A stretch of DNA of 21,125 bases from the IMG/VR virus record IMGVR_UViG_2526164601_000021, positions 1 through 21,125 of that record; one strand, 5' to 3'. The notes under the pieces are model-generated. The model was not told the DNA's origin. It saw only the letters and a list, made by a program, of their open reading frames with translations, and did not search any database. Below are positions 2,519 to 19,581 of this stretch, in pieces. Source of the stretch: a virus. Lineage: Duplodnaviria; Heunggongvirae; Uroviricota; Caudoviricetes. Position numbers and translations under genes: made by a program. How positions within the stretch are numbered: position 1 is the first letter of the stretch; every line of letters starts with the position of its first letter.

Positions 2519-2600
2519 AGGTCGATCTGTCAGGTATCGAAAGGAAGATTTTCGGGAGATTGTGATTTTGGATGAAGGAGGGGGAATTTATAAAATGCAC

Positions 2601-2629
2601 TTGCGCACAGTGCAACGGTGCGCTATAGT
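2601..2629 (+). promoter_or_regulatory. Putative higBA promoter (-35 TTGCGC, 17 nt spacer, -10 TATAGT) overlapping an inverted repeat GCGCAC..GTGCGC (likely autoregulatory operator)
   Basis: Sequence read directly; located about 40 nt upstream of the higB start, with GGAGG about 12 nt upstream of the ATG. Confidence 0.45.
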
Positions 2630-2668
2630 TATGGCATTCGGTAATCATCACGGAGGATCAAATGACTA

Positions 2669-2971
2669 ATGACCAAAAAAATTAACATAAAGGATTTCAG
2701 GGATGCGTGGCTTGATGATTTTTTTGAATTTTCAACACCACATAGAAAGATACCTCCTGATATTCATATGACATTGTCACGGAAGTTGGACATTATCAAT
2801 GCCGCAACTACCTGTAAGGATTTAAGATCACCACCAGGTAATCGGTATGAGGAACTGTCAGGGAAGCTAAATGGCTATTCATCAGTAAGGGTGAATAAGC
2901 AATATAGGTTAATTTTTAAGTGGGTTAACGGAAAGGCCGAGGACTTGTATCTCGACCCTCACAAATACTAA
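2669..2971 (+). CDS. higB: Type II toxin, HigB family (plasmid-killer / RelE-ParE superfamily)
   Basis: 100 aa; N-terminal FRDAWLDDFFE and C-terminal RVNKQYRLIFKWVNGKAEDLYLDPHKY match hallmark HigB motifs; immediately followed by a HigA-type HTH antitoxin gene. Confidence 0.85.
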   Translation: MTKKINIKDFRDAWLDDFFEFSTPHRKIPPDIHMTLSRKLDIINAATTCKDLRSPPGNRYEELSGKLNGYSSVRVNKQYRLIFKWVNGKAEDLYLDPHKY

Positions 2972-3041
2972 AACAGATACCCGGTTACGGACCGGGTTCT
3001 GACCAGAGTCCACTTAATACGCACGCTAGTAAGGGCAAAAA

Positions 3042-3380
3042 ATGAAACAGGCAACCAGAAAACCGACGACCGTAGGTGATATCCTGCTGTACGAATACCT
3101 GGAGCCGTTAGAGCTGAAGATCAACGAGTTGGCAGAAATACTTCATGTTCATCGTAACACCGTAAGTGCTCTTGTTAATAATAATCGTAAGCTAACGATG
3201 GATATGGCATATCGCCTGGCAAAAGCATTCGATACTTCTGTAGATTTTTGGATTAATCTTCAGACCGCAGTAGACCTGTGGGAAGTCGAAAATGATATGC
3301 GCGTTCAGGAAGAGTTAAGTCGTATCAATACTGCTGAAAAATTTATTTCTCAGCGGAACCTGAATAAAAAAGCAGCCTGA
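3042..3380 (+). CDS. higA: Type II antitoxin, HigA family (XRE-type HTH)
   Basis: 112 aa; TVGDILLYEYLEPLELKINELAEILHVHRNTVSALVNNNRKLTMDMAYRLAKAF..FWINLQ matches the HigA/VapI HTH pattern; downstream of higB. Confidence 0.85.
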   Translation: MKQATRKPTTVGDILLYEYLEPLELKINELAEILHVHRNTVSALVNNNRKLTMDMAYRLAKAFDTSVDFWINLQTAVDLWEVENDMRVQEELSRINTAEKFISQRNLNKKAA

Positions 3381-3401
3381 TATAGTAAAACACATACAAA
3401 A

Positions 3402-3430
3402 AGCCCACTTAGCAAGTGGGCTTTCCTTTG
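3402..3430 (+). terminator. Rho-independent terminator after higA
   Basis: 9 bp stem AGCCCACTT / AAGTGGGCT with a 3 nt loop, followed by a T-rich tract. Confidence 0.6.
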
Positions 3431-7221: not shown

Positions 7222-7531
7222 TGCTTTGGCGTTATGACTCCCTACCGCGCTTCGGCTGAAAGTTAATCGTCAAAAGAACCTTCAACGGGAGCCGTTAGCG
7301 CGATGGATTATGTGCATTTTGTGATTTCCAAAATAGTGTCAACCACTTTTTGTGGTATTTTATTTTGACCGAAATTTGGCCTAAATCATGTTGATTTGGC
7401 TGATTATTTTTATAACATAAAAGTCATTTTGATTGCATGAAGGTCTGTGCAGTGAAGTTAAGGGTTTTAGGGACCGCGCTCGCGGCTAAGATGGTAAAGT
7501 ATGGAGTTAATGAAATGTTTTTTATAAAAAA

Positions 7532-8336
7532 ATGGAAAAAGAAGTTCCTCAACAATACTTGCTACTGTTGTTGCTCTCTCTGTTCCCACATTTGCCTTTG
7601 CTTATGATTTTAGCAAAATTGACTGCAATGCCCCTAAAACCAGACAGATGTTAATCGATGATTATAATGAACTGCTGAAGGACGATCAGGAAGCAATCTC
7701 TGTAATTGATGCTTATAATCAGATCAATGAGATAAGAGAAAAAATAAGCTCCAATGCCTGGGAACGTATGAATTCTCAGATGGAAGTGCGCTTAGGGTTA
7801 GATATAAGTTATATTTAAATAGCCTCGGCACACCCATATATGAATTTTCTCCAGTTGAGGAATTAACGCAAGATGACGTAAGCGCATCTATCCAAAATAT
7901 CCCTGCAACCACAGCGAGTAAGGCTGGAGGGAATGAAGAAACGTACTCCTGTAAAGTGGCTGTAACCTACAATGGAAAGCGCTCTAACTATATGGGGGAT
8001 ACCGGAGTCTGGGATCGTGTGATTACTGACTATGGCACTTATTTCTCCTGGGATTTGCCGCGCGGAAATCGAGGCAATAGTACAGGCCAGGATGCTTTTA
8101 GTGGCATGGACGAATTAAAGCCAGCATTAGAAAATAAGCTGGTGAGAAAGGAAGTCGAAAAAGATGGTAGCGTGGTTGATGAATTTAGGACTGATGTAAG
8201 TTATGGGGAAAAGCAACCAGTTCATAAGTTTGTATATGCTCGTAGAATAAAACCTACAGGCATGAGAGAGTATTATGTTACGGATTTAACAGACAGGCGG
8301 GCGTTTATGTTTCTGAATTGTCAGAGAGATTCGTGA
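7532..8336 (+). CDS. Putative secreted protein (signal-peptide-like N-terminus), reading frame interrupted twice at homopolymer runs (about 7536-7540 and 7814-7819); possible pseudogene or sequencing artefact
   Basis: Manual three-frame translation: ATG near 7532, signal-like KKRSSSTILATVVALSVPTFA in the adjacent frame, third frame continues to the stop at 8336 (track ORF 7956..8336 is its 3' part). AT-rich. Confidence 0.35.
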
Positions 8337-8344
8337 TTGACATA

Positions 8345-8371
8345 GCAGGCTTACTATTAAGCCTGCTTTTT
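8345..8371 (+). terminator. Rho-independent terminator after the secreted-protein gene
   Basis: Stem GCAGGCTT / AAGCCTGC with 6 nt loop followed by TTTTT. Confidence 0.6.
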
Positions 8372-8375
8372 GGCT

Positions 8376-8735
8376 TTACTCGGTAATAGTTTTGCAGTTG
8401 TTTTGATTTAATGACAATCCTAGCTTGCTAGCAGCCAACTCATTTTCTGTGTGAGAACCAGCAAAAATGAAGCCTTGTTTTATCTTATTTACGGTGAAAT
8501 ATTTATTATACATGAACGCCCAGATAAATGAGGCAATCCACGGGCCAATTCCGGCTGTGAGGAATGCCAGTATCAGCATCACTACAAATACCCCAATAAA
8601 AGTTATAAAGTCTTTCCTGAACAAAGCTGGAAAAGCACCAAACAAGAATGTAGTCCAGGAAAAACCATAAAAACCGGTGATTGATTCGCCAGTTTGAGGG
8701 TTTTCAAGTTTAATTTTAGTAGCCACGATTATCAT
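8376..8735 (-). CDS. Small inner-membrane protein (119 aa, two predicted TM helices)
   Basis: ORF track; hydrophobic segments WTTFLFGAFPALF and ITFIGVFVVMLILAFLTAGIGPWIASFIWAFMY; AT-rich; convergent with the secreted-protein gene. Confidence 0.5.
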   Translation of the reverse strand: MIIVATKIKLENPQTGESITGFYGFSWTTFLFGAFPALFRKDFITFIGVFVVMLILAFLTAGIGPWIASFIWAFMYNKYFTVNKIKQGFIFAGSHTENELAASKLGLSLNQNNCKTITE

Positions 8736-8871
8736 CCTTTTACATAAAAAACATATAGTTATAGTGCTGTGTGAGATTCTAATGTTACTAATTTACACTT
8801 TGTAATGCAATTAAATAACTTTAGGCAGTGGAAGTAACTATTCGTGGCAGACTATCGTTAAGACCTTTCAA

Positions 8872-9156
8872 TTATGGTTGCTGTAAGTGGAGGGGAACAG
8901 CCTGTTCTATCATCTCGCGTATCAAGCCAACTTCAAGTAGTTCCTCGGATTCCCAGTATCTGTTTGTCACCAGATCCAGGCTGGCTATGACCTTGTGCCG
9001 GTCATTCGGCATAGCCAATTTTTCTGCTATAACCATCAGTGAAAACTCTTCATCCAGTAGAATTTGATAGCAGTTTTTTGATAGTTCCACTTCCCTTATG
9101 AGACTGAAACGTCGCTGGATTGTGGCAGCAGAGTAAGTGAAATCTATTTTCTTCAT
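8872..9156 (-). CDS. Hypothetical protein (94 aa)
   Basis: ORF track; no motif recognised; downstream of the Rha operon. Confidence 0.45.
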   Translation of the reverse strand: MKKIDFTYSAATIQRRFSLIREVELSKNCYQILLDEEFSLMVIAEKLAMPNDRHKVIASLDLVTNRYWESEELLEVGLIREMIEQAVPLHLQQP

Positions 9157-10380: not shown

Positions 10381-10556
10381 GCCTCCTTTTGCTAATTTAA
10401 GGAGCTACCGCGTGAGGTTCCAATCTCAATGGCGGTAGCACTGACTGGGTTGGAACTACCGGCGCAAAAGGGAACCGGCCTGCCTTTCGGCAGCCCAGCC
10501 AGCACTACCATTGATCTCTGAGCTAAACGCTACGTATGGCTGTGCGATGGCATGAC
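10381..10556 (-). ncRNA. Highly structured, repeat-rich leader upstream of the Icd-like/Rha operon; candidate C4/CI-type antisense-RNA immunity region
   Basis: Multiple mutually complementary boxes on the transcribed strand (CGGTAG x2 vs CTACCG; GTTCCAA vs TTGGAAC; CTGCC-tttc-GGCAG hairpin), allowing alternative pairings. Confidence 0.3.
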
Positions 10557-10558
10557 AC

Positions 10559-10581
10559 AAAAAAAGACGCTTTCGGCGTCT
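10559..10581 (-). terminator. Rho-independent terminator (minus strand) ending the upstream leftward transcript
   Basis: Stem AGACGC / GCGTCT with 5 nt loop followed on the minus strand by T7. Confidence 0.6.
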
Positions 10582-10685
10582 GTGTCGCCTTTTGCATTAT
10601 CCGGGGTTCCAATCCCGGCACCCGTTTTTCTAAGGTGCCGTAGAAATATACCCCACGATAATGCCAGGGCGCAACAGTCAGTATT

Positions 10686-11182: not shown

Positions 11183-11761
11183 CTAATTTATCAATTCAAT
11201 CGCCATCTGATACAACGCCATTTCATCGGCATTGTGCCGTATGAAATCTGCTTTTCCGCCTATTTTTCCATCAGCATGAACAGGGACCAGCCAGGGATAT
11301 TGTTCTCGGACCTCGGCTGGCGCTGCGTACTGGTGGTGCCATTTACACAAAGGGAGGACATATTTATGTGCGTTCTCTGCCGTTCTCCCGAAGATATGGT
11401 GCAGGGATACCACTGGGCTATGTTTCCCGTGAATATGGCAGGCAATGCAGGGGAGAGTACCGATAGCGGTCTGTATCCGGCGTTCATCGGCTGTGAGTGA
11501 TCTGCCCTTCAGGCCGCGTGACGTGCGTGTTTTTTTGGACGGAGCGGATACAGCTTTCTCTTTTCTCCGCTGGTCATATTGCTTTGCTTTTTCAATTTTT
11601 TTTTGCCGATATTCAGGCGATGCGGCTTTTTCTCTCGCTCGCTGCTGCTGGCGTTGAGCTTGTTGAAGGCGCTTTGCCCTTTGTTCCTCTCGCCAGGCCG
11701 GGTCAGCCAATTTTTGCATGGCTTTTTGTCTCTGTTTCTCCCAATAGCTCTGTTTCTGCAT
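11183..11761 (-). CDS. HNH-type nuclease, Ref-like (recombination enhancement function family): basic low-complexity N-terminus plus C-terminal Cys/His motif
   Basis: 192 aa; N-terminal K/R/Q-rich region; C-terminal CIACHIHGKHSPVVSLHHIFGRTAENAHKYVLPLCKWHH resembles an HNH zinc-binding core. Confidence 0.55.
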   Translation of the reverse strand: MQKQSYWEKQRQKAMQKLADPAWREEQRAKRLQQAQRQQQRAREKAASPEYRQKKIEKAKQYDQRRKEKAVSAPSKKTRTSRGLKGRSLTADERRIQTAIGTLPCIACHIHGKHSPVVSLHHIFGRTAENAHKYVLPLCKWHHQYAAPAEVREQYPWLVPVHADGKIGGKADFIRHNADEMALYQMAIELIN

Positions 11762-11810: not shown

Positions 11811-11838
11811 GTTAGATATTCAAAATTGATTTTCTAAC
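11811..11838. promoter_or_regulatory. Inverted repeat GTTAGA-N16-TCTAAC in the promoter region of the rightward operon; candidate operator
   Basis: Perfect 6 bp inverted repeat about 40 nt upstream of the first rightward ORF; a near-identical element occurs at 16373..16400. Confidence 0.4.
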
Positions 11839-11878
11839 ACAAAACATTAATATCATTCCTGATAACTGTTTGGAGGAC

Positions 11879-15348: not shown

Positions 15349-15656
15349 GCATCATTAAAGAAATGCCGGTAGAACGTGATGAATATGGCTGCTGGACACA
15401 TCCGGAGTATGAGAAGTTTTGCGCAGGTCGTGAATATATTTCCACTGAGGAATTTGACGCCTGGATGAAGGAAAATAATCTTCAGTGGACTATTCGCAGT
15501 ATGGATGAAGATGATTTTGATCTGGACGCAGCTGGTCCCGATATTGCCGCCTGGGAACCGGAGCGACCAGAGGGTGAAGGCTGGTTTGTTGGCTCTATTC
15601 ATGACACTGAAGATGGTCCGGTTTGTATCTGGCTGCGTGAGAAGGTTGCCGCATGA
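15345..15656 (+). CDS. Hypothetical protein (103 aa)
   Basis: ORF track; start overlaps the previous stop, and its stop overlaps the next start. Confidence 0.45.
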
Positions 15657-16345
15657 CCCAGGCTCTGCATGAAGTGAATTTATATAGCCGTATTGATGGT
15701 TCTGGCTATAGAAACATATGGGTTGTTGGTGATCTGCATGGTTGCTACACCAGACTGATGTCCGAACTCCATCGTGTGGATTTTGACCCGGCGCAGGATT
15801 TACTGATATCGGTTGGCGACCTTATCGATCGCGGTACTGAAAATGTCGAATGTCTGGAACTATTGCAGATGCCCTGGTTCAGGGCAGTAATGGGGAACCA
15901 TGAGCGGTTGATGCTTGATGCGTTAAGTCCTGATGGCAACGTGAATAACTGGCTAATGAATGGCGGACAATGGTTCTTCATGCTGGACACTGATCAGGAA
16001 ATATTAGCCAAGGCGCTGGTGGAGCTGGTAAAGCGTCTGCCATATATCATTGAGTTGAACGCCGGGCATGAAACTATCGTTATAGCCCATGCCGACTATC
16101 CAGGTGGAGAGTACCAGTTCGGTAAGGATGTGTCGCTTTTTGATGTTGTCTGGTCGCGCAGTCGCGTCGGTGATTCGATAGATGGCATTGGTGGAGAAAT
16201 CACAGGCGCAGATCGCTTTATCTTTGGGCACACACCGGTACGAAGACCAAAAGCATACTGGAATCAGCACTACATAGACACGGGCGCGGTTTTTTGCGGA
16301 AATCTGACGCTAATGCAGGTGAAGGGAGGGCAGCTTAAAGTCTGA
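15653..16345 (+). CDS. Ser/Thr protein phosphatase, lambda phosphatase type (calcineurin-like metallophosphoesterase)
   Basis: 230 aa; GDLHGC, GDLIDRG and GNHE motifs, and close resemblance along its length to bacteriophage lambda phosphatase as recalled. Confidence 0.9.
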
Positions 16346-16372: not shown

Positions 16373-16400
16373 GTTAGAACATTGATTTTAGTTTTCTAAC
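16373..16400. promoter_or_regulatory. Inverted repeat GTTAGAA-N14-TTCTAAC upstream of the DUF968 gene; second copy of the candidate operator
   Basis: 7 bp perfect inverted repeat sharing the ATTGATTTT spacer core with the 11811..11838 site; about 44 nt upstream of the ATG at 16444. Confidence 0.4.
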
Positions 16401-16443
16401 ATATTATTTTACCGATCGGAACAAAACAGAGTCGGTATGCATT

Positions 16444-17439
16444 ATGAGTGCAATAATCACCCCATATGTCGTAAATGAAACTGGTGTGGCTGTCTTTCCT
16501 GTAGATAAGCCCACCAGCAATTACATCGGCGCAGGACGCCGTTTTCTTATATCCCCATTGCCGCGTGAACAGGCTGAAAACACCCCTGATGGTGTCGTTG
16601 ACCTGAATTATTCACTGGTTGCCAACCAGTCACTGGCACCCTTTTTTCAAAGTGAGCGTGTATTTAACGCGTTAGGTGGTGAGGATTCTCTCGTTCACTG
16701 GGTTAGCACCAACATTCACGATTGCCAGGCGCATGATAAGCGCGATTGCAGCCACCAGCTAACCACCCATTTCTATAACGGTTCTGCCGTTCGCCTGTGC
16801 TGGAAGCATGATGCGGAATACATGATGAAGGGATACGGCAAGCTGGAAGACCAACTGTCACGGAATCGCGCCAACTGGATTATGAACTGGGCTGCCAGCG
16901 AGTTAAAACTTCCGCCGGATCGCGATCTGAGCATGGTTGAACTCACCTTTTGGGCCATTCGCCGGAATCTTAAAGACGAACTGCCTGATGAAGCTGGTCG
17001 CATTGCATTTTGTCAGCCAAAAACTGAAATCCCTACCGGTACGCTGAAAGAATCAGATATCACCTGGGAGCACAGTACCCGCGAGCTGGTGGACATAACC
17101 GCAGAGCAGATCGTCAACCTGTCTGTAGATGAGGATTCCGGCCTGCTTTATATGCGCCGACCAAAAGCGGTCCTCGGTAAAAGCCCGGCTTATCTCCGGT
17201 TTGTGGTTTCTCGTCCGTGCATCGGATGCGGTGGCAAAGTTAACCACCCGTTCATGTACCGCGCCCGCTCGTTAAACGAACACGACCGCTGGGCTGTTCC
17301 TCTTTGCGATGACTGCGCCAGAAGCGCAGAAAACGATGTTCGGGCATGGGAAAAAGCACATGGCATACGCCTTTACGTAGCCGCTAACCAGCTTTTTGAC
17401 TTCGCCATCGAGCGCGGAGTGATCACGTTCAATAACTGA
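16444..17439 (+). CDS. DUF968 family phage protein (YdfU-like) with Cys/His-rich HNH-like motifs
   Basis: 331 aa; general resemblance to YdfU-type prophage proteins; C-terminal CIGCGG..HP....EHDRWAVPLCDDCA cluster. Confidence 0.6.
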   Translation: MSAIITPYVVNETGVAVFPVDKPTSNYIGAGRRFLISPLPREQAENTPDGVVDLNYSLVANQSLAPFFQSERVFNALGGEDSLVHWVSTNIHDCQAHDKRDCSHQLTTHFYNGSAVRLCWKHDAEYMMKGYGKLEDQLSRNRANWIMNWAASELKLPPDRDLSMVELTFWAIRRNLKDELPDEAGRIAFCQPKTEIPTGTLKESDITWEHSTRELVDITAEQIVNLSVDEDSGLLYMRRPKAVLGKSPAYLRFVVSRPCIGCGGKVNHPFMYRARSLNEHDRWAVPLCDDCARSAENDVRAWEKAHGIRLYVAANQLFDFAIERGVITFNN

Positions 17440-17455
17440 TGAGGTGGATCAAAAA

Positions 17456-18136
17456 ATGAAAGAACGCGGGATGATTTTTAACGATGAGATGGTCAGGGCC
17501 ATCCTCGAAGGAAGGAAGACGCAGACTCGCCGACCTGTAAAAAATGTCAGGGCCGATAACTGCCTAGTTATCCGTAAACCGACAAAGAAACGCAATGGTG
17601 TCTATACCCACGTTATGGATGCACCTGAACATGGTTTATGCCCGTTCGGTAACGTTGGTGATCGCATATGGGTCCGTGAGGCGTGGGCGATATTAGGCAA
17701 TGAGGATGGTTGCAGTGTGGACTGGAACGACAACCTTTGTCGTGGCGATGAGAAGAACGCAGCAAGGATTTATCGGGCCAGTTGTGAGCAAAAGCCTGGT
17801 GATTACGGTTTGTGGTCGATACCCGATGATGTCGACTGGAAACCTCACACTGTGAATGAAAAGTTTGATGGCGGGTGGCGTCCATCAATTCACATGCCGC
17901 GCTGGGCTTCGCGTATTTTGCTGGAAATTACCGACGTGCGTGTGGAACGGCTGCGTGATATGAGCGAGGCAGATGCTAAAGCAGAAGGCGCATCTCCGGC
18001 GATGTACAAAATTACGCCGCCGGAAGCTGTTTATCGCGTTGGTTTTGGTGATATCTGGCGCAGTATTTACGGGCAGGATAACTGGCTATCTAACCCGTGG
18101 GTATGGGTAATCGAGTTTAAGCGCGTTCAGGAATAA
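17456..18136 (+). CDS. ASCH-like domain protein (PUA-fold)
   Basis: Track ORF 17444..18136 (GTG); likely ATG at 17456; N-terminal MIFNDEMVRAILEGRKTQTRR matches the ASCH signature as in E. coli YqfB. Confidence 0.5.
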   Translation: MKERGMIFNDEMVRAILEGRKTQTRRPVKNVRADNCLVIRKPTKKRNGVYTHVMDAPEHGLCPFGNVGDRIWVREAWAILGNEDGCSVDWNDNLCRGDEKNAARIYRASCEQKPGDYGLWSIPDDVDWKPHTVNEKFDGGWRPSIHMPRWASRILLEITDVRVERLRDMSEADAKAEGASPAMYKITPPEAVYRVGFGDIWRSIYGQDNWLSNPWVWVIEFKRVQE

Positions 18137-18139
18137 ACC

Positions 18140-19018
18140 GTGAGTATGCATCAAGTTGTCAGCTTTTCAGGTGGACGAACATCGGCTTATCTCGTTCATC
18201 TGATGGAAGCACAGCGAAAAGCTGGCGCTAGCGTCCATTTCATTTTTATGGATACCGGCTGTGAACATCCTCTGACGTATCGCTTTATTCGTGAGGTTGT
18301 GAAGTTCTGGAACGTACCGCTAACGGTGTTGCAGGTCGATATAAATCCAGAACTTGGGCAGCCAAATGGTTATACGGAATGGGAACCAAAGGATATTCAG
18401 ACGCGAATGCCGGTGCTTAAACCGTTTATGGACATGGTTAAAAAGTACGGTACGCCTTACATCGGCGGCGCGTTCTGTACTGACAGGCTAAAACTCACCC
18501 CTTTCACGAAATATTGCGATGACCATTTTGGGCGAGGGAATTACATCACATGGCTGGGTATTCGTGCGGACGAACACCGTAGGCTGAAACCGAAACCGGG
18601 CGTCCGGTATCTTGCAGAACTGTCAGATTTTGATAAGTCGGATGTTATTCGGTGGTGGCGAAAACAACCTTTTGATTTGCAAATCCCGGAGCACCTCGGG
18701 AACTGTGTTTTTTGCATCAAAAAGTCAACGCAAAAGCTGGGGCTTGCATGTAAAGACGAACCTGGTCTGATGCGGGTTTTTAATGAACTGGTTACAGGCA
18801 AACACGTCAGGGATGGTCATCGCAGAACAGGTAAAGACGTTATGTACCGTGGTCACCTGACGCTTGACGGGATTGCCAGAATGTATGCCGACAGCGACTA
18901 CAGAAATTTGTATCAGGCGATGGTGCAGGCCAAGCGGTTTGATACTGGTTCGTGTTCCGAATCATGTGAAATCTGGGGTGACCAATTGGAGTTGAAATTC
19001 GAAGAGGTAGTGGTATGA
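18140..19018 (+). CDS. PAPS reductase-like / PP-loop ATP pyrophosphatase family protein
   Basis: 292 aa; N-terminal SFSGGRTSAYL PP-loop motif and overall resemblance to phage PAPS-reductase-family proteins. Confidence 0.65.
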   Translation: MSMHQVVSFSGGRTSAYLVHLMEAQRKAGASVHFIFMDTGCEHPLTYRFIREVVKFWNVPLTVLQVDINPELGQPNGYTEWEPKDIQTRMPVLKPFMDMVKKYGTPYIGGAFCTDRLKLTPFTKYCDDHFGRGNYITWLGIRADEHRRLKPKPGVRYLAELSDFDKSDVIRWWRKQPFDLQIPEHLGNCVFCIKKSTQKLGLACKDEPGLMRVFNELVTGKHVRDGHRRTGKDVMYRGHLTLDGIARMYADSDYRNLYQAMVQAKRFDTGSCSESCEIWGDQLELKFEEVVV

Positions 19019-19581
19019 CAAACAAAATTGACTATCAAAAACTTCGTGAAATCGCTGAAAAAACAAAAATTGCTGGTGAAGCACCTGTAATGCCTTTCGA
19101 TCAGCGAATTAATGCGCTTAACGATTTTATGAAGCACTTTTCGCCAGATATCGCGCTGGCATTGTTGGATGAACGGGAAAGAAACCAGCAATACATCAAA
19201 CGCCGCGACCAGGAGAACGAGGAAATTGCGCTAACGGTAGGGAAGCTGCGTGTTGAGCTGGAAGCCGCAGAGAAGCGCATTGCAGAACTGGAAGCACGGG
19301 AAATAAAACCAGCCAAAGGCGAAGTTCTTGTCGTTGTTTCTGGTTTTACTGGTTGCGGAAAAAGCGCCATCGCCGGGGAAATAGAAATTGCGATGAAAGC
19401 TATTGGTGTGCCGGTTCAATGGACTAATGGCGATGCAGAAAAGCATATGACCGGCGCTGACTGGCTGACAGCGATTGAGATGTACAAACCAACTGTGCGC
19501 ATCGTGGAAGTTAATGTGCCACGCGTCGCTGGCATTTGCATCAAAGGAGACGCAGGAGAGCAAAACGATGAAAAACCGTAA
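19015..19581 (+). CDS. Ea22-like coiled-coil protein
   Basis: 188 aa; ATGA overlap with the previous stop; central repeats LRVELEAAEKRIAELEARE; similar to lambdoid Ea22 family as recalled. Confidence 0.5.
   Translation: MTNKIDYQKLREIAEKTKIAGEAPVMPFDQRINALNDFMKHFSPDIALALLDERERNQQYIKRRDQENEEIALTVGKLRVELEAAEKRIAELEAREIKPAKGEVLVVVSGFTGCGKSAIAGEIEIAMKAIGVPVQWTNGDAEKHMTGADWLTAIEMYKPTVRIVEVNVPRVAGICIKGDAGEQNDEKP

Follow-up and report, generated by a model that had tools for sequence, protein, structure and literature searches.

Do three tightly packed phage genes, encoding a DUF968 protein, an ASCH protein and a PP-loop protein of the PAPS-reductase family, act together, or are they independent passengers that lie side by side? 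The question is raised by positions 16444-19018 of a 21,125-nt phage sequence (the window), which a sequence-only reading had interpreted as a joint nucleic acid modification or anti-restriction module. The packing was as that reading had described it, with three co-directional ORFs of 331, 230 and 292 aa on the + strand, separated by gaps of 4 nt and 3 nt. The window derives from a D6/P1-type phage-plasmid: over the trio stretch it is 99.3% identical to the annotated E. coli plasmid pZ1323HEC0010-2, phage D6 is 93.5% identical to the window across the shared parts, and a P1-type C4 antisense RNA is present. The region is ordinary mosaic accessory cargo of a known, common E. coli phage-plasmid type.

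The neighbourhood fits this description. The operon would be a long run of small genes, most of them dispensable, lying between ref (11183-11761, - strand; Pfam RecA_dep_nuc) and the humD/phd-doc region. Immediately upstream of the trio, and outside it, is a Ser/Thr phosphatase gene of the NinI/P1 Ppp type (15653..16345, + strand; Pfam Metallophos, 4e-16; PHROG 246, 1e-108), whose product also matches NCBIfam PRK11439 at 4e-83, yet under the model cut-off. Immediately downstream is a gene for an Ead/Ea22-like protein (19015..19581, + strand; Pfam Ead_Ea22, 1.3e-19), the start of which overlaps the stop of the PP-loop gene in the sequence ATGA, and the transcription unit therefore runs on past the trio. 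P1 pdcB, P1 ppp and lambda ninC, the known counterparts of genes in this stretch, are non-essential (PMC10695390). The region is thus of a kind already known, namely the mosaic single-gene cassettes of lambdoid and P1-like phages ("morons", nin- and ea-region genes), with which it shares gene-precise presence and absence, dispensability, exchange across unrelated phage types (here Stx phages and P1/D6 plasmids), tight packing and stop/start overlaps; nothing essential distinguishes it from them.

Linkage of the three genes was assessed in a profile-HMM census of loci from IMG/VR, each extending 6 kb to either side of the anchor gene, a sample that is redundant and dominated by E. coli. Neither partner accompanied the ASCH gene in 74 of 80 ASCH-anchored loci, and the PP-loop gene, an orthologue of lambda ninC, stood alone in 68 of 80 loci anchored on it. 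Among DUF968-anchored loci (>=95% identical), 15 had the DUF968 gene alone, 13 added ASCH only, one added NinC only and five had both. Given every combination among near-identical loci, together with the many lone ASCH and NinC loci, the three genes are independent, as was also evident from a tblastn census. Lack of linkage in related phages was the refuting outcome that the sequence-only reading had itself named, and consistent co-occurrence of the three genes was seen in neither related nor unrelated phages.

Homology breakpoints coincide exactly with gene boundaries. Locus L177 lacks precisely 17451-18129, that is, the ASCH gene, and keeps NinC; locus L013 lacks 18132-19022, the NinC gene, and keeps ASCH. 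In phage D6, 17442-19022 is missing and a small gene, orf99, replaces both. Stx phages share the NinC ORF only (18141-19021 in Stx phage PA2), and NinC occurs by itself in Lambda, Stx phages, Chi-like phages and Vibrio phages. In diverged Salmonella, Enterobacter and other phage-plasmids neither ASCH nor NinC was found after the DUF968 gene. Proteins of 212 aa and 216 aa that follow DUF968 in the relatives from Enterobacter and in the relative L220 were considered as ASCH candidates on account of their size, but have no ASCH HMM match.

The stretch very probably belongs to the accessory operon carried by a D6/P1-type phage-plasmid, in which three independent single-gene cassettes have come to lie side by side in one sub-lineage; DUF968, ASCH and NinC would not need each other. 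A single module with an operator of its own, serving DNA or tRNA modification or anti-restriction, would account for the packing, the common direction and the genuine operator-like site just upstream, and the full trio does recur, in several IMG/VR contigs and in 15 E. coli genomes (913 genomes hold some part of the region, and only these 15 hold at least 80% of it). Such a module is nevertheless highly improbable: all single and pairwise combinations exist among near-identical elements, the breakpoints respect the genes, D6 and the Salmonella and Enterobacter relatives dispense with ASCH and NinC, and the transcription unit passes beyond the trio through the NinC-Ead/Ea22 overlap. Furthermore, the genes with which the DUF968 family is associated serve recombination and not modification (PMC5714182, PMC4118853), and PADLOC gave no match for the DUF968 protein, the ASCH protein or the phosphatase. 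The trio as such is unimportant, and a "module" label in its annotation would be misleading.

A narrower proposal is that the ASCH protein, as an amidohydrolase, and NinC act on one substrate in the P1/D6 phage-plasmids. Examples of such a substrate are C34 of CAU-anticodon tRNAs, by ac4C removal and a TilS-like PP-loop reaction, or one modified DNA base. In these plasmids 12 NinC copies share 97% identity or more with that of the window, and 11 of them directly follow an ASCH gene across an identical junction. In the "57%" alleles, ~98% identity extends without a break from the 3' third of ASCH into NinC. By sequence comparison the adjacency arose once; the shared junction is read as common descent, and it is compatible with cooperation in that lineage. 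The single origin of the adjacency, the predominance of loci with one gene and not the other, the solitary NinC of Lambda, Stx, Chi-like and Vibrio phages, and the retention of either gene after clean loss of its neighbour in L177 and L013 all count against a common substrate, which is accordingly unlikely. Nor was any ASCH gene found near fusions of NinC to the methyltransferase Dam, even at E<=10. When the genes around ASCH were classified by Pfam, integrases, Ead/Ea22, RecT and methyltransferases turned up, and PAPS_reduct was outside the 25 most frequent neighbour families in either of the two censuses. DNA methyltransferases lie within two genes of ASCH relatives in ~15 of 122 upstream and ~7 of 116 downstream neighbours; since NinC is itself fused to such enzymes, the two families share an indirect link to DNA methylation.

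Domain searches upheld the three family assignments of the sequence-only reading: Pfam DUF968 (E 6.4e-45; 153.7 bits vs a cut-off of 27.8) and Pfam PAPS_reduct (37 bits vs 22.5) were above their cut-offs, and the ASCH assignment came from the fold, Pfam ASCH (PF04266) scoring 18.3 bits, under its gathering score of 21.2. Two of the roles attached to these families, an HNH-like enzyme for the first gene and a modified-base reader for the second, fared less well.

The first gene (16444-17439, + strand; 331 aa) probably starts at ATG 16444, a start kept by all homologues including YdfU. Its product matches PHROG 96, "HNH endonuclease", at E 2e-104, is 26% identical over its full length to YdfU of the Qin prophage (BLASTP, E 5e-34), and is 96% identical to its D6 orthologue, whose record remarks "similar to P1 gene pdcB". 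It is P1 PdcB-like and a full-length homologue of E. coli YdfU, a prophage accessory protein of His-Me finger group 7, to which YbcO/DUF1364 also belongs. The protein has in common with YdfU the N-terminal region, the zinc-binding cysteines and an H280-D281 pair (PMC5714182). According to MAFFT alignments, the DPHH and HHxELH motifs of YdfU, found also in loci L027 and L038, have no counterpart in the window protein or in any D6/P1-clade homologue: DPHHLIGHG and CRKHHNELH of YdfU are replaced by NHPFM and CDDCARSAEN. The lone histidine there, His267, is not conserved by close relatives, and of the features of the catalytic region the clade retains only the Cys4 zinc site (C259, C262, C288 and C291) and H280-D281. 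A sequence search of the PDB with the DUF968 protein found nothing. Because the canonical catalytic histidines are lost, nuclease activity is doubtful, and the protein is probably not a conventional HNH nuclease. It may instead be a zinc-binding, DNA-binding protein derived from a His-Me finger nuclease.

The second gene, assigned to PHROG 874, occupies an ORF of 230 aa at 17444-18136 (+ strand) that opens with GTG 17444. Translation probably begins at ATG 17456 (coding 17456..18136), which has a GAGGTG Shine-Dalgarno sequence 8 nt upstream and fits homologues that begin with MKER. Neither the family profile nor an ASCH core from which the insertion had been deleted gave a sequence-level match to PDB chains, and a fold search was therefore needed to place the protein; it revealed the ASCH beta-barrel. 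Alignment by hhalign to E. coli YqfB, an ASCH N4-acetylcytidine amidohydrolase (PDB 9KYF, 1TE7), matched just 25 columns at 30% probability. The two proteins differ in length, 103 aa for YqfB and 226-230 aa for the window protein, the core of which is split by an insertion of ~75 residues (79-155) with its own invariant motif, WxPSIHMPR; in the predicted model, made from a shallow alignment, pLDDT there is below 50. G23, K25, T28, R30 and E181 align with YqfB G19, K21, T24, R26 and E74, and all five are invariant in 13 homologues, down to 33% identity. In YqfB, mutation of K21, T24, R26 or E74 abolishes or greatly reduces activity (PMC6972931), and each of 19 ASCH proteins assayed removes the acetyl group from ac4C in tRNA; the equivalence of K25/T28/R30/E181 to the YqfB-type catalytic set draws on PMC6972931 and bioRxiv 10.64898/2026.02.27.708502.

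With all four YqfB catalytic residues kept, the ASCH protein is probably an enzyme, a candidate YqfB-type amidohydrolase rather than a reader of modified bases. Lys25 would serve as base, Thr28 as nucleophile, Arg30 in the oxyanion hole and Glu181 as acid, and the enzyme would strip an N-acyl group off cytosine, as in N4-acetylcytidine of nucleosides or tRNA; the large insert probably directs it to another substrate or partner. PHROG 874, a large and phylogenetically wide phage family listed as "unknown function", can be relabelled as YqfB-type ASCH with an intact catalytic set; on that view temperate phages might be erasers of N4-acetylcytidine or of some related mark.

The third gene has an ORF of 292 aa (18140-19018, + strand) opening with GTG 18140. 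The probable start, ATG 18146, gives a coding sequence (18146..19018) of 290 aa, the length of lambda NinC (Nin290), to which the product is 79.6% identical over residues 3-287 (tblastn, E 2e-162). The match to PHROG 424 (E 6e-92) agrees with the assignment to the PP-loop PAPS-reductase family, of which the Pfam model is covered at positions 3-66 of 175 only. The PP-loop, SFSGGRTS, and six cysteines (C113, C126, C189xxC192 and C272xxxC276) are invariant or nearly so in alignments of 20 and 25 sequences. The likeness to lambda NinC thus extends from identity and length to the PP-loop, the cysteine pattern and residence in an early or accessory phage operon, whereas the position differs, ninC lying between ninB and ninD in lambda and following the ASCH gene in the P1/D6 phage-plasmid operon. 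Lambda NinC is dispensable and without known function (PMC10695390). Searches of the literature found no experimentally tested role for NinC, for the phage homologues of PAPS reductase or for the Dam-PAPS fusion, and a 2024 paper describes these phage proteins as still awaiting investigation.

What NinC acts on is suggested by its fusions. Family members occur joined to Dam (PF05869), with the NinC domain either preceding or following it, and also to a methyltransferase of the D12 class (PF02086), so that repeated, independent fusions involve two unrelated classes of N6-adenine DNA methyltransferase. NinC therefore most likely acts on DNA, and the fusions tie the family to DNA modification independently of the trio; to that extent the earlier suggestion of a nucleic acid target for the PP-loop enzyme remains plausible. 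Like DndC, SspD and BrxP, NinC has a PP-loop ATP pyrophosphatase domain, is cysteine-rich and probably Fe-S-dependent, and would act on DNA (PMC12914056). The resemblance is confined to the N-terminal half: the best PADLOC match is SspD (1.4e-13; residues 5-148, profile positions 2-121 of 277), BrxP and DndC follow at E ~1e-4, and DndC TIGR03183 reaches 18.1 bits where its cut-off is 290. No DndD/SspC/BrxC NTPase, SspB/DndE, desulfurase or DNA-recognition partner was found in a Pfam scan flanking the trio or in other NinC contexts, and published phosphorothioation systems require a DndD/SspC-type NTPase (PMC12914056). Identification of NinC as a phosphorothioation enzyme of the DndC/SspD/BrxP kind was rejected, as the match does not reach family level and the partner genes are absent.

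From its motifs, NinC would be a PP-loop enzyme in which ATP serves to adenylate a substrate; to judge by the cysteine pattern only, an Fe-S cluster with Cys ligands and a pair of C-terminal cysteines probably take part in sulfur or redox chemistry. A tentative proposal, to which a low probability is attached, is that the family, lambda ninC included, comprises DNA-directed PP-loop/Fe-S enzymes that work with or downstream of N6-adenine methylation to make or process an undescribed DNA modification. The mark might be of thio or phosphorothioate type, at or near Dam sites, with the target recognized by the fused methyltransferase domain or, for unfused copies, by host or phage Dam. The usual database label would instead have NinC truly reduce PAPS or APS, as the product of an auxiliary metabolic gene boosting host sulfate assimilation; this is extremely unlikely. 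As a candidate equivalog, CysH was discarded (NCBIfam PRK02090, 21.9 bits vs a cut-off of 154). The fusions to two classes of DNA adenine methyltransferase are a concrete lead on lambda ninC, and a DNA-directed NinC, if true, would supply the function that this lambda gene has lacked ever since the genome was sequenced, a consequence that belongs to the third gene alone, not to the trio.

There remains the operator-like element ahead of the trio, at 16373..16400 and 44 nt upstream of the DUF968 start codon, which proved to be a real, recurring site. It is a perfect 7-bp inverted repeat, GTTAGAA-N14-TTCTAAC, that taken singly is unremarkable, ranking 15th of 40 inverted repeats in 9 kb. A second copy of identical geometry (11811..11838) lies between ref and the point where the long accessory operon, running rightward, begins. 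The window thus holds two copies of GTTAGA-N16-TCTAAC against 0.02 expected, and 0 of 100 shuffles gave two; some 30 D6-type loci have kept both copies, as have Salmonella relatives, in which the arms of the site before DUF968 are lengthened to 9 bp. Given the second copy and the conservation, the palindrome is more than chance, and its comparison across these loci identifies it as a recurrent, generic, promoter-proximal phage operator-like site.

The right arm at 16373-16400 lies between a TTGATT -35-like sequence (16382-16387) and an A/T-rich -10-like hexamer (~16404-16410), and that at 11811-11838 is flanked by TTGATT (11826-11831) and TAATAT (11848-11853). A sigma-70 scan of the 98-nt gap before DUF968 called no promoter, the proposed hexamers being weak, with 8 of 12 matches. 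The 17-bp operator of the P1 C1 repressor has the consensus ATTGCTCTAATAAATTT. A C1 operator was considered and set aside, as the window has no match to ATTGCTCTAATAAATTT at up to three mismatches; the palindrome has only a TCTAA core in common with it. The palindrome may serve a phage repressor or activator as its operator, with weak sigma-70-like promoters overlapping it, and would give DUF968 and everything downstream of it (ASCH, NinC, Ead/Ea22 and beyond) a second, regulated entry of transcription. GTTAGA-N16-TCTAAC can thus serve as a marker of putative regulated promoters in D6-type phage-plasmids.

The DNA is part of a P1/D6-type phage-plasmid, and the three genes to which the sequence-only reading drew attention are present on its + strand as open reading frames at 16444-17439 (a DUF968 protein), 17444-18136 (an ASCH-fold protein) and 18140-19018 (NinC, a PAPS-reductase-like PP-loop protein), of the families which that reading assigned and with gaps of 4 nt and then 3 nt between them. 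The region is known and annotated: it belongs to the mosaic accessory genes carried by a common phage-plasmid, and its third gene is lambda ninC. Across 2.8 kb round the trio, the E. coli plasmid pZ1323HEC0010-2 (92.8 kb) is 99.3% identical and a dozen further plasmids, each of about 90 kb, are 96-98% identical, while phage D6 reaches 93.5% within the parts that it has in common with this stretch. From about 12.0 kb onwards the + strand carries a long array of small genes (DUF4406, DUF7446, a NinI/Ppp-like phosphatase and others) corresponding to the orf88-orf105 region of D6, and the trio sits inside it.

Elsewhere the window has a P1/P7-type immI region, in which Rfam places a C4 antisense RNA at 10428-10515 (76.7 bits) and isrK at 10560-10638 (62.5 bits), both on the - strand and next to Icd-like and Rha-type antirepressor genes. 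The window also encodes Ref, a RecA-dependent nuclease, and, as a HigB/HigA pair, a HigB-like toxin (2669-2971; Pfam 4e-35) followed by an HTH_3 antitoxin-like gene (3042-3380). This stretch (about 2568-3430) is non-collinear with the near-identical reference plasmid, L001. A mosaic replacement is seen at 7488-8931, which differs in sequence from L001:6751-10206 and has a lower GC content (0.40-0.41); L001 has there dcd (dCTP deaminase) and two hypothetical genes, none of whose three proteins was matched by PADLOC.

The proposal that the trio is a joint nucleic-acid modification or anti-restriction module is not supported, as the genes occur in all combinations and homology breaks at their boundaries. 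Linkage was surveyed in IMG/VR loci, a redundant and E. coli-biased set, within 6 kb on either side of an anchor gene. By tblastn, neither partner accompanied the ASCH relative in 70 of 80 loci, no ASCH gene accompanied NinC relatives (at least 92% identical) in 68 of 80, and every combination was seen among 34 DUF968 loci (at least 95% identical, same plasmid type). Profile HMMs gave, for ASCH anchors, 74 alone, 5 with DUF968 and 1 trio; for NinC anchors, 68 alone, 8 with ASCH, 1 with DUF968 and 3 trios; and for DUF968 anchors, 15 alone, 13 with ASCH, 1 with NinC and 5 trios. ASCH relatives stand alone in GF-2, F116, pVa-1, Salinibacter, Flavobacterium and Roseburia phages, as does NinC in lambda, an Erwinia phage, Vibrio phages and Chi-like phages. 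In DNA alignments the homology breakpoints coincide with gene boundaries: locus L177 lacks exactly 17451-18129 (ASCH), L013 lacks 18132-19022 (NinC), D6 has a 300-nt orf99 instead of 17442-19022, and Stx phage PA2 shares only 18141-19021 (NinC). Diverged phage-plasmids of Salmonella, Enterobacter and others (DUF968 50-82% identical) have no ASCH or NinC gene after DUF968. Linkage of the three genes across related phages was thus not found, and 913 complete E. coli genomes contain some part of the region, only 15 of them at least 80% of it. The slot after DUF968 appears to be an accessory-gene hot spot. In diverged phage-plasmids it is occupied by other genes, such as one for a GmrSD_N-domain (type IV restriction-like) protein and ones for unrelated proteins of 212-216 aa (L220:7223-7738; L216 and L217:6006-6644).

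Within P1/D6 plasmids the ASCH and NinC genes are more regularly adjacent. Of 12 NinC copies at 97% identity or more, 11 stand immediately after an ASCH gene and share an identical junction, although the ASCH alleles before them range from 57 to 99% identity; the low-identity alleles differ in the central insert only, and their 3' third and NinC are contiguous at about 98% identity. A 23-residue NinC N-terminal remnant directly follows ASCH in a P1-like locus (L016:4757-4825), from which NinC has therefore been deleted. Because of the identical junctions, the contiguous 3' third and NinC, and the remnant, the adjacency had one origin and was later eroded by deletion and internal recombination. 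A partnership in which an ASCH amidohydrolase and NinC act on the same substrate in these phage-plasmids is a weak possibility, and its sole support is an indirect link that both share to methyltransferases. ASCH domains are reported to be fused to, or in operons with, N6A methyltransferases (PMC4738411), and a Pfam census of the two nearest genes to either side of each ASCH relative agrees. Among 122 upstream neighbours it counted RecT (9), lambda P (7), Dam (6), MT-A70 (6), ParB HTH (5) and C5 methylases (3); downstream, integrases (14/116) and Ead/Ea22 (13/116) were found. PAPS_reduct was outside the 25 commonest neighbour families in both the upstream and the downstream census, and at a threshold as loose as E<=10 no ASCH gene turned up in loci with a Dam-NinC fusion.

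The third gene of the trio probably starts at ATG 18146, which makes its product 290 aa long, like lambda NinC. It is orthologous to lambda ninC, sharing 79.6% identity with 'Nin 290' over residues 3-287, and the Stx2 phage 'NinC' is about 95% identical in protein and 92-93% in DNA. This orthology and a Pfam PAPS_reduct match bear out the assignment to the PP-loop, PAPS-reductase family. The match covers only the PP-loop third (residues 6-72), the best defence-system model, SspD (1.4e-13), covers only the N-terminal half, and scores against the CysH, DndC and TilS equivalog models are far under cut-offs. The family also has six conserved cysteines (C113, C126, GNC189xFC192xKK, GSC272SESC276E) beside an invariant PP-loop, SFSGGRTS. 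NinC thus forms a separate branch of the PP-loop ATP pyrophosphatases, and from the cysteine pattern it likely carries an Fe-S cluster. In lambda, ninC is dispensable and its product is annotated as a member of the PAPS-reductase family (PMC10695390); the literature searched reports no function for NinC, and a 2024 paper remarks that phage PAPS-reductase-like proteins 'deserve further investigation'.

Fusions of the NinC domain to phage Dam (PF05869) occur among relatives of 50-55% identity and among representatives of 50%-identity clusters; Dam is C-terminal in P0215, P0227, P0239, P0240, P0260, P0271 and P0291 and N-terminal in P0261 and P0262; in P0268 the NinC domain is fused to a D12-class N6-adenine methyltransferase (PF02086), of another Pfam family. 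From these independent fusions, in both orders and with two methyltransferase families, we argue that NinC would share a process with DNA adenine methylation and hence act on DNA. A more specific reading, for NinC alone, is a DNA-directed enzyme with PP-loop and Fe-S cluster whose action is tied to adenine methylation; this we consider improbable. The fusion has been noticed before, since one source gives P0215 the name 'Dam methyltransferase with PAPS reductase domain'; a literature search found no functional study of it. In lambdoid prophages (L212-L214) the fusions are found in regions of nin type or early-left type.

The ASCH gene probably starts at ATG 17456, which has a GAGGTG Shine-Dalgarno sequence 8 nt upstream and matches homologues that begin MKER. 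Its product falls in PHROG 874 ('unknown function', E 5e-90), a family with tblastn matches in 346 phage records that range from Escherichia to Salinibacter, Pseudomonas, Vibrio, Flavobacterium and Roseburia phages. Pfam ASCH falls below threshold (18.3 bits against 21.2), and the octapeptide, G23-R-K25-T-Q-T28-R-R30, is of the YqfB-type 'GK[T/S]R' form. In direct alignment K25/T28/R30/E181 fall on YqfB K21/T24/R26/E74, with an identical C-terminal VIEFK strand, and the four residues are invariant across 13 homologues, down to 33% identity. In YqfB, the changes K21A, T24A and R26A abolish activity and E74A lowers it 100-1000-fold, and the proposed mechanism uses Lys as base, Thr as nucleophile, Glu as acid and Arg as oxyanion hole (PMC6972931). 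All 19 ASCH proteins tested in a 2026 preprint removed ac4C from tRNA, the octapeptide Lys and Glu/Thr being essential (bioRxiv 10.64898/2026.02.27.708502). Because the YqfB catalytic set is kept and ASCH proteins deacetylate tRNA ac4C, the product is predicted to be an amidohydrolase; its intact catalytic residues speak against the passive modified-base reader of the earlier description. The P1/D6 alleles differ mainly by a swap of the central insert (17530-17882), with near-identical sequence in roughly the opening 30 codons and in the final third. The insert, which is poorly modelled in the predicted structure, so seems to behave as an exchangeable sub-module. The nin-type operon that carries NinC in Erwinia phage Midgardsormr38 also has, some 3 kb further upstream, a DUF3850 (ASCH-like) gene (L207:1-14), which a PHROG-874-type HMM misses and which so is of a different ASCH family.

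The DUF968 gene probably starts at ATG 16444, as its N-terminus is conserved in every homologue, YdfU included; the D6 annotation uses the equivalent start, and RefSeq (PGAP) begins the gene of the near-identical plasmid NZ_CP148392 at the equivalent of 16486, 14 codons short. The protein matches Pfam DUF968 (E 6e-45) and PHROG 96, is 96% identical to its D6 orthologue, recorded as 'similar to P1 gene pdcB' (pdcB is non-essential in P1), and has a full-length homologue in YdfU of the Qin prophage (26% identity, E 5e-34). [quoted passage not shown] The description 'HNH-like' holds for the family and fails for the catalytic histidines. In alignments the canonical DPHH...HHxELH motif of YdfU and two distant members (L027, L038) is NHPFM...CDDCARSAEN in the window protein and all D6/P1-clade relatives (residues 259-298): the HH stretch is absent, the distal histidines are replaced and His267 varies among close relatives, while a Cys4 site (C259, C262, C288, C291) and H280-D281 are kept. 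The product would be zinc-binding and probably DNA-binding, with doubtful nuclease activity, and the D6/P1-clade proteins may be a catalytically dead HNH derivative.

A 98-nt gap before DUF968, the only sizeable one among the genes immediately flanking the trio, contains an inverted repeat that, taken alone, is ordinary beside other repeats. As GTTAGA-N16-TCTAAC, it has exactly two copies in the window (0.02 expected; two copies in 0 of 100 shuffles), one at 16373-16400 before DUF968 and one at 11811-11838, flanked by divergent ref on one side and the head of the rightward operon on the other. Both are conserved in D6-type plasmids from E. coli as well as Salmonella, occupying equivalent positions in about 30 D6-type loci and in Salmonella relatives; in the latter the arms grow to 9 bp although the spacer is changed. 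In each copy the right arm is flanked by two hexamers spaced 16-17 nt apart, TTGATT and an A/T-rich -10-like one, which is the layout of a putative operator overlapping a rightward promoter. The recurrent palindrome with this layout therefore makes separate transcriptional control plausible, though for DUF968 and everything downstream and not for the trio only: the stop of NinC overlaps the start of an Ead/Ea22-like gene through ATGA, and the transcription unit therefore extends past the trio. The P1 C1 consensus does not match the palindrome, and P1 late promoters are reported with a 9-bp inverted repeat bound by Lpa; GTTAGA-N16-TCTAAC is a candidate operator of D6-type phage-plasmids.
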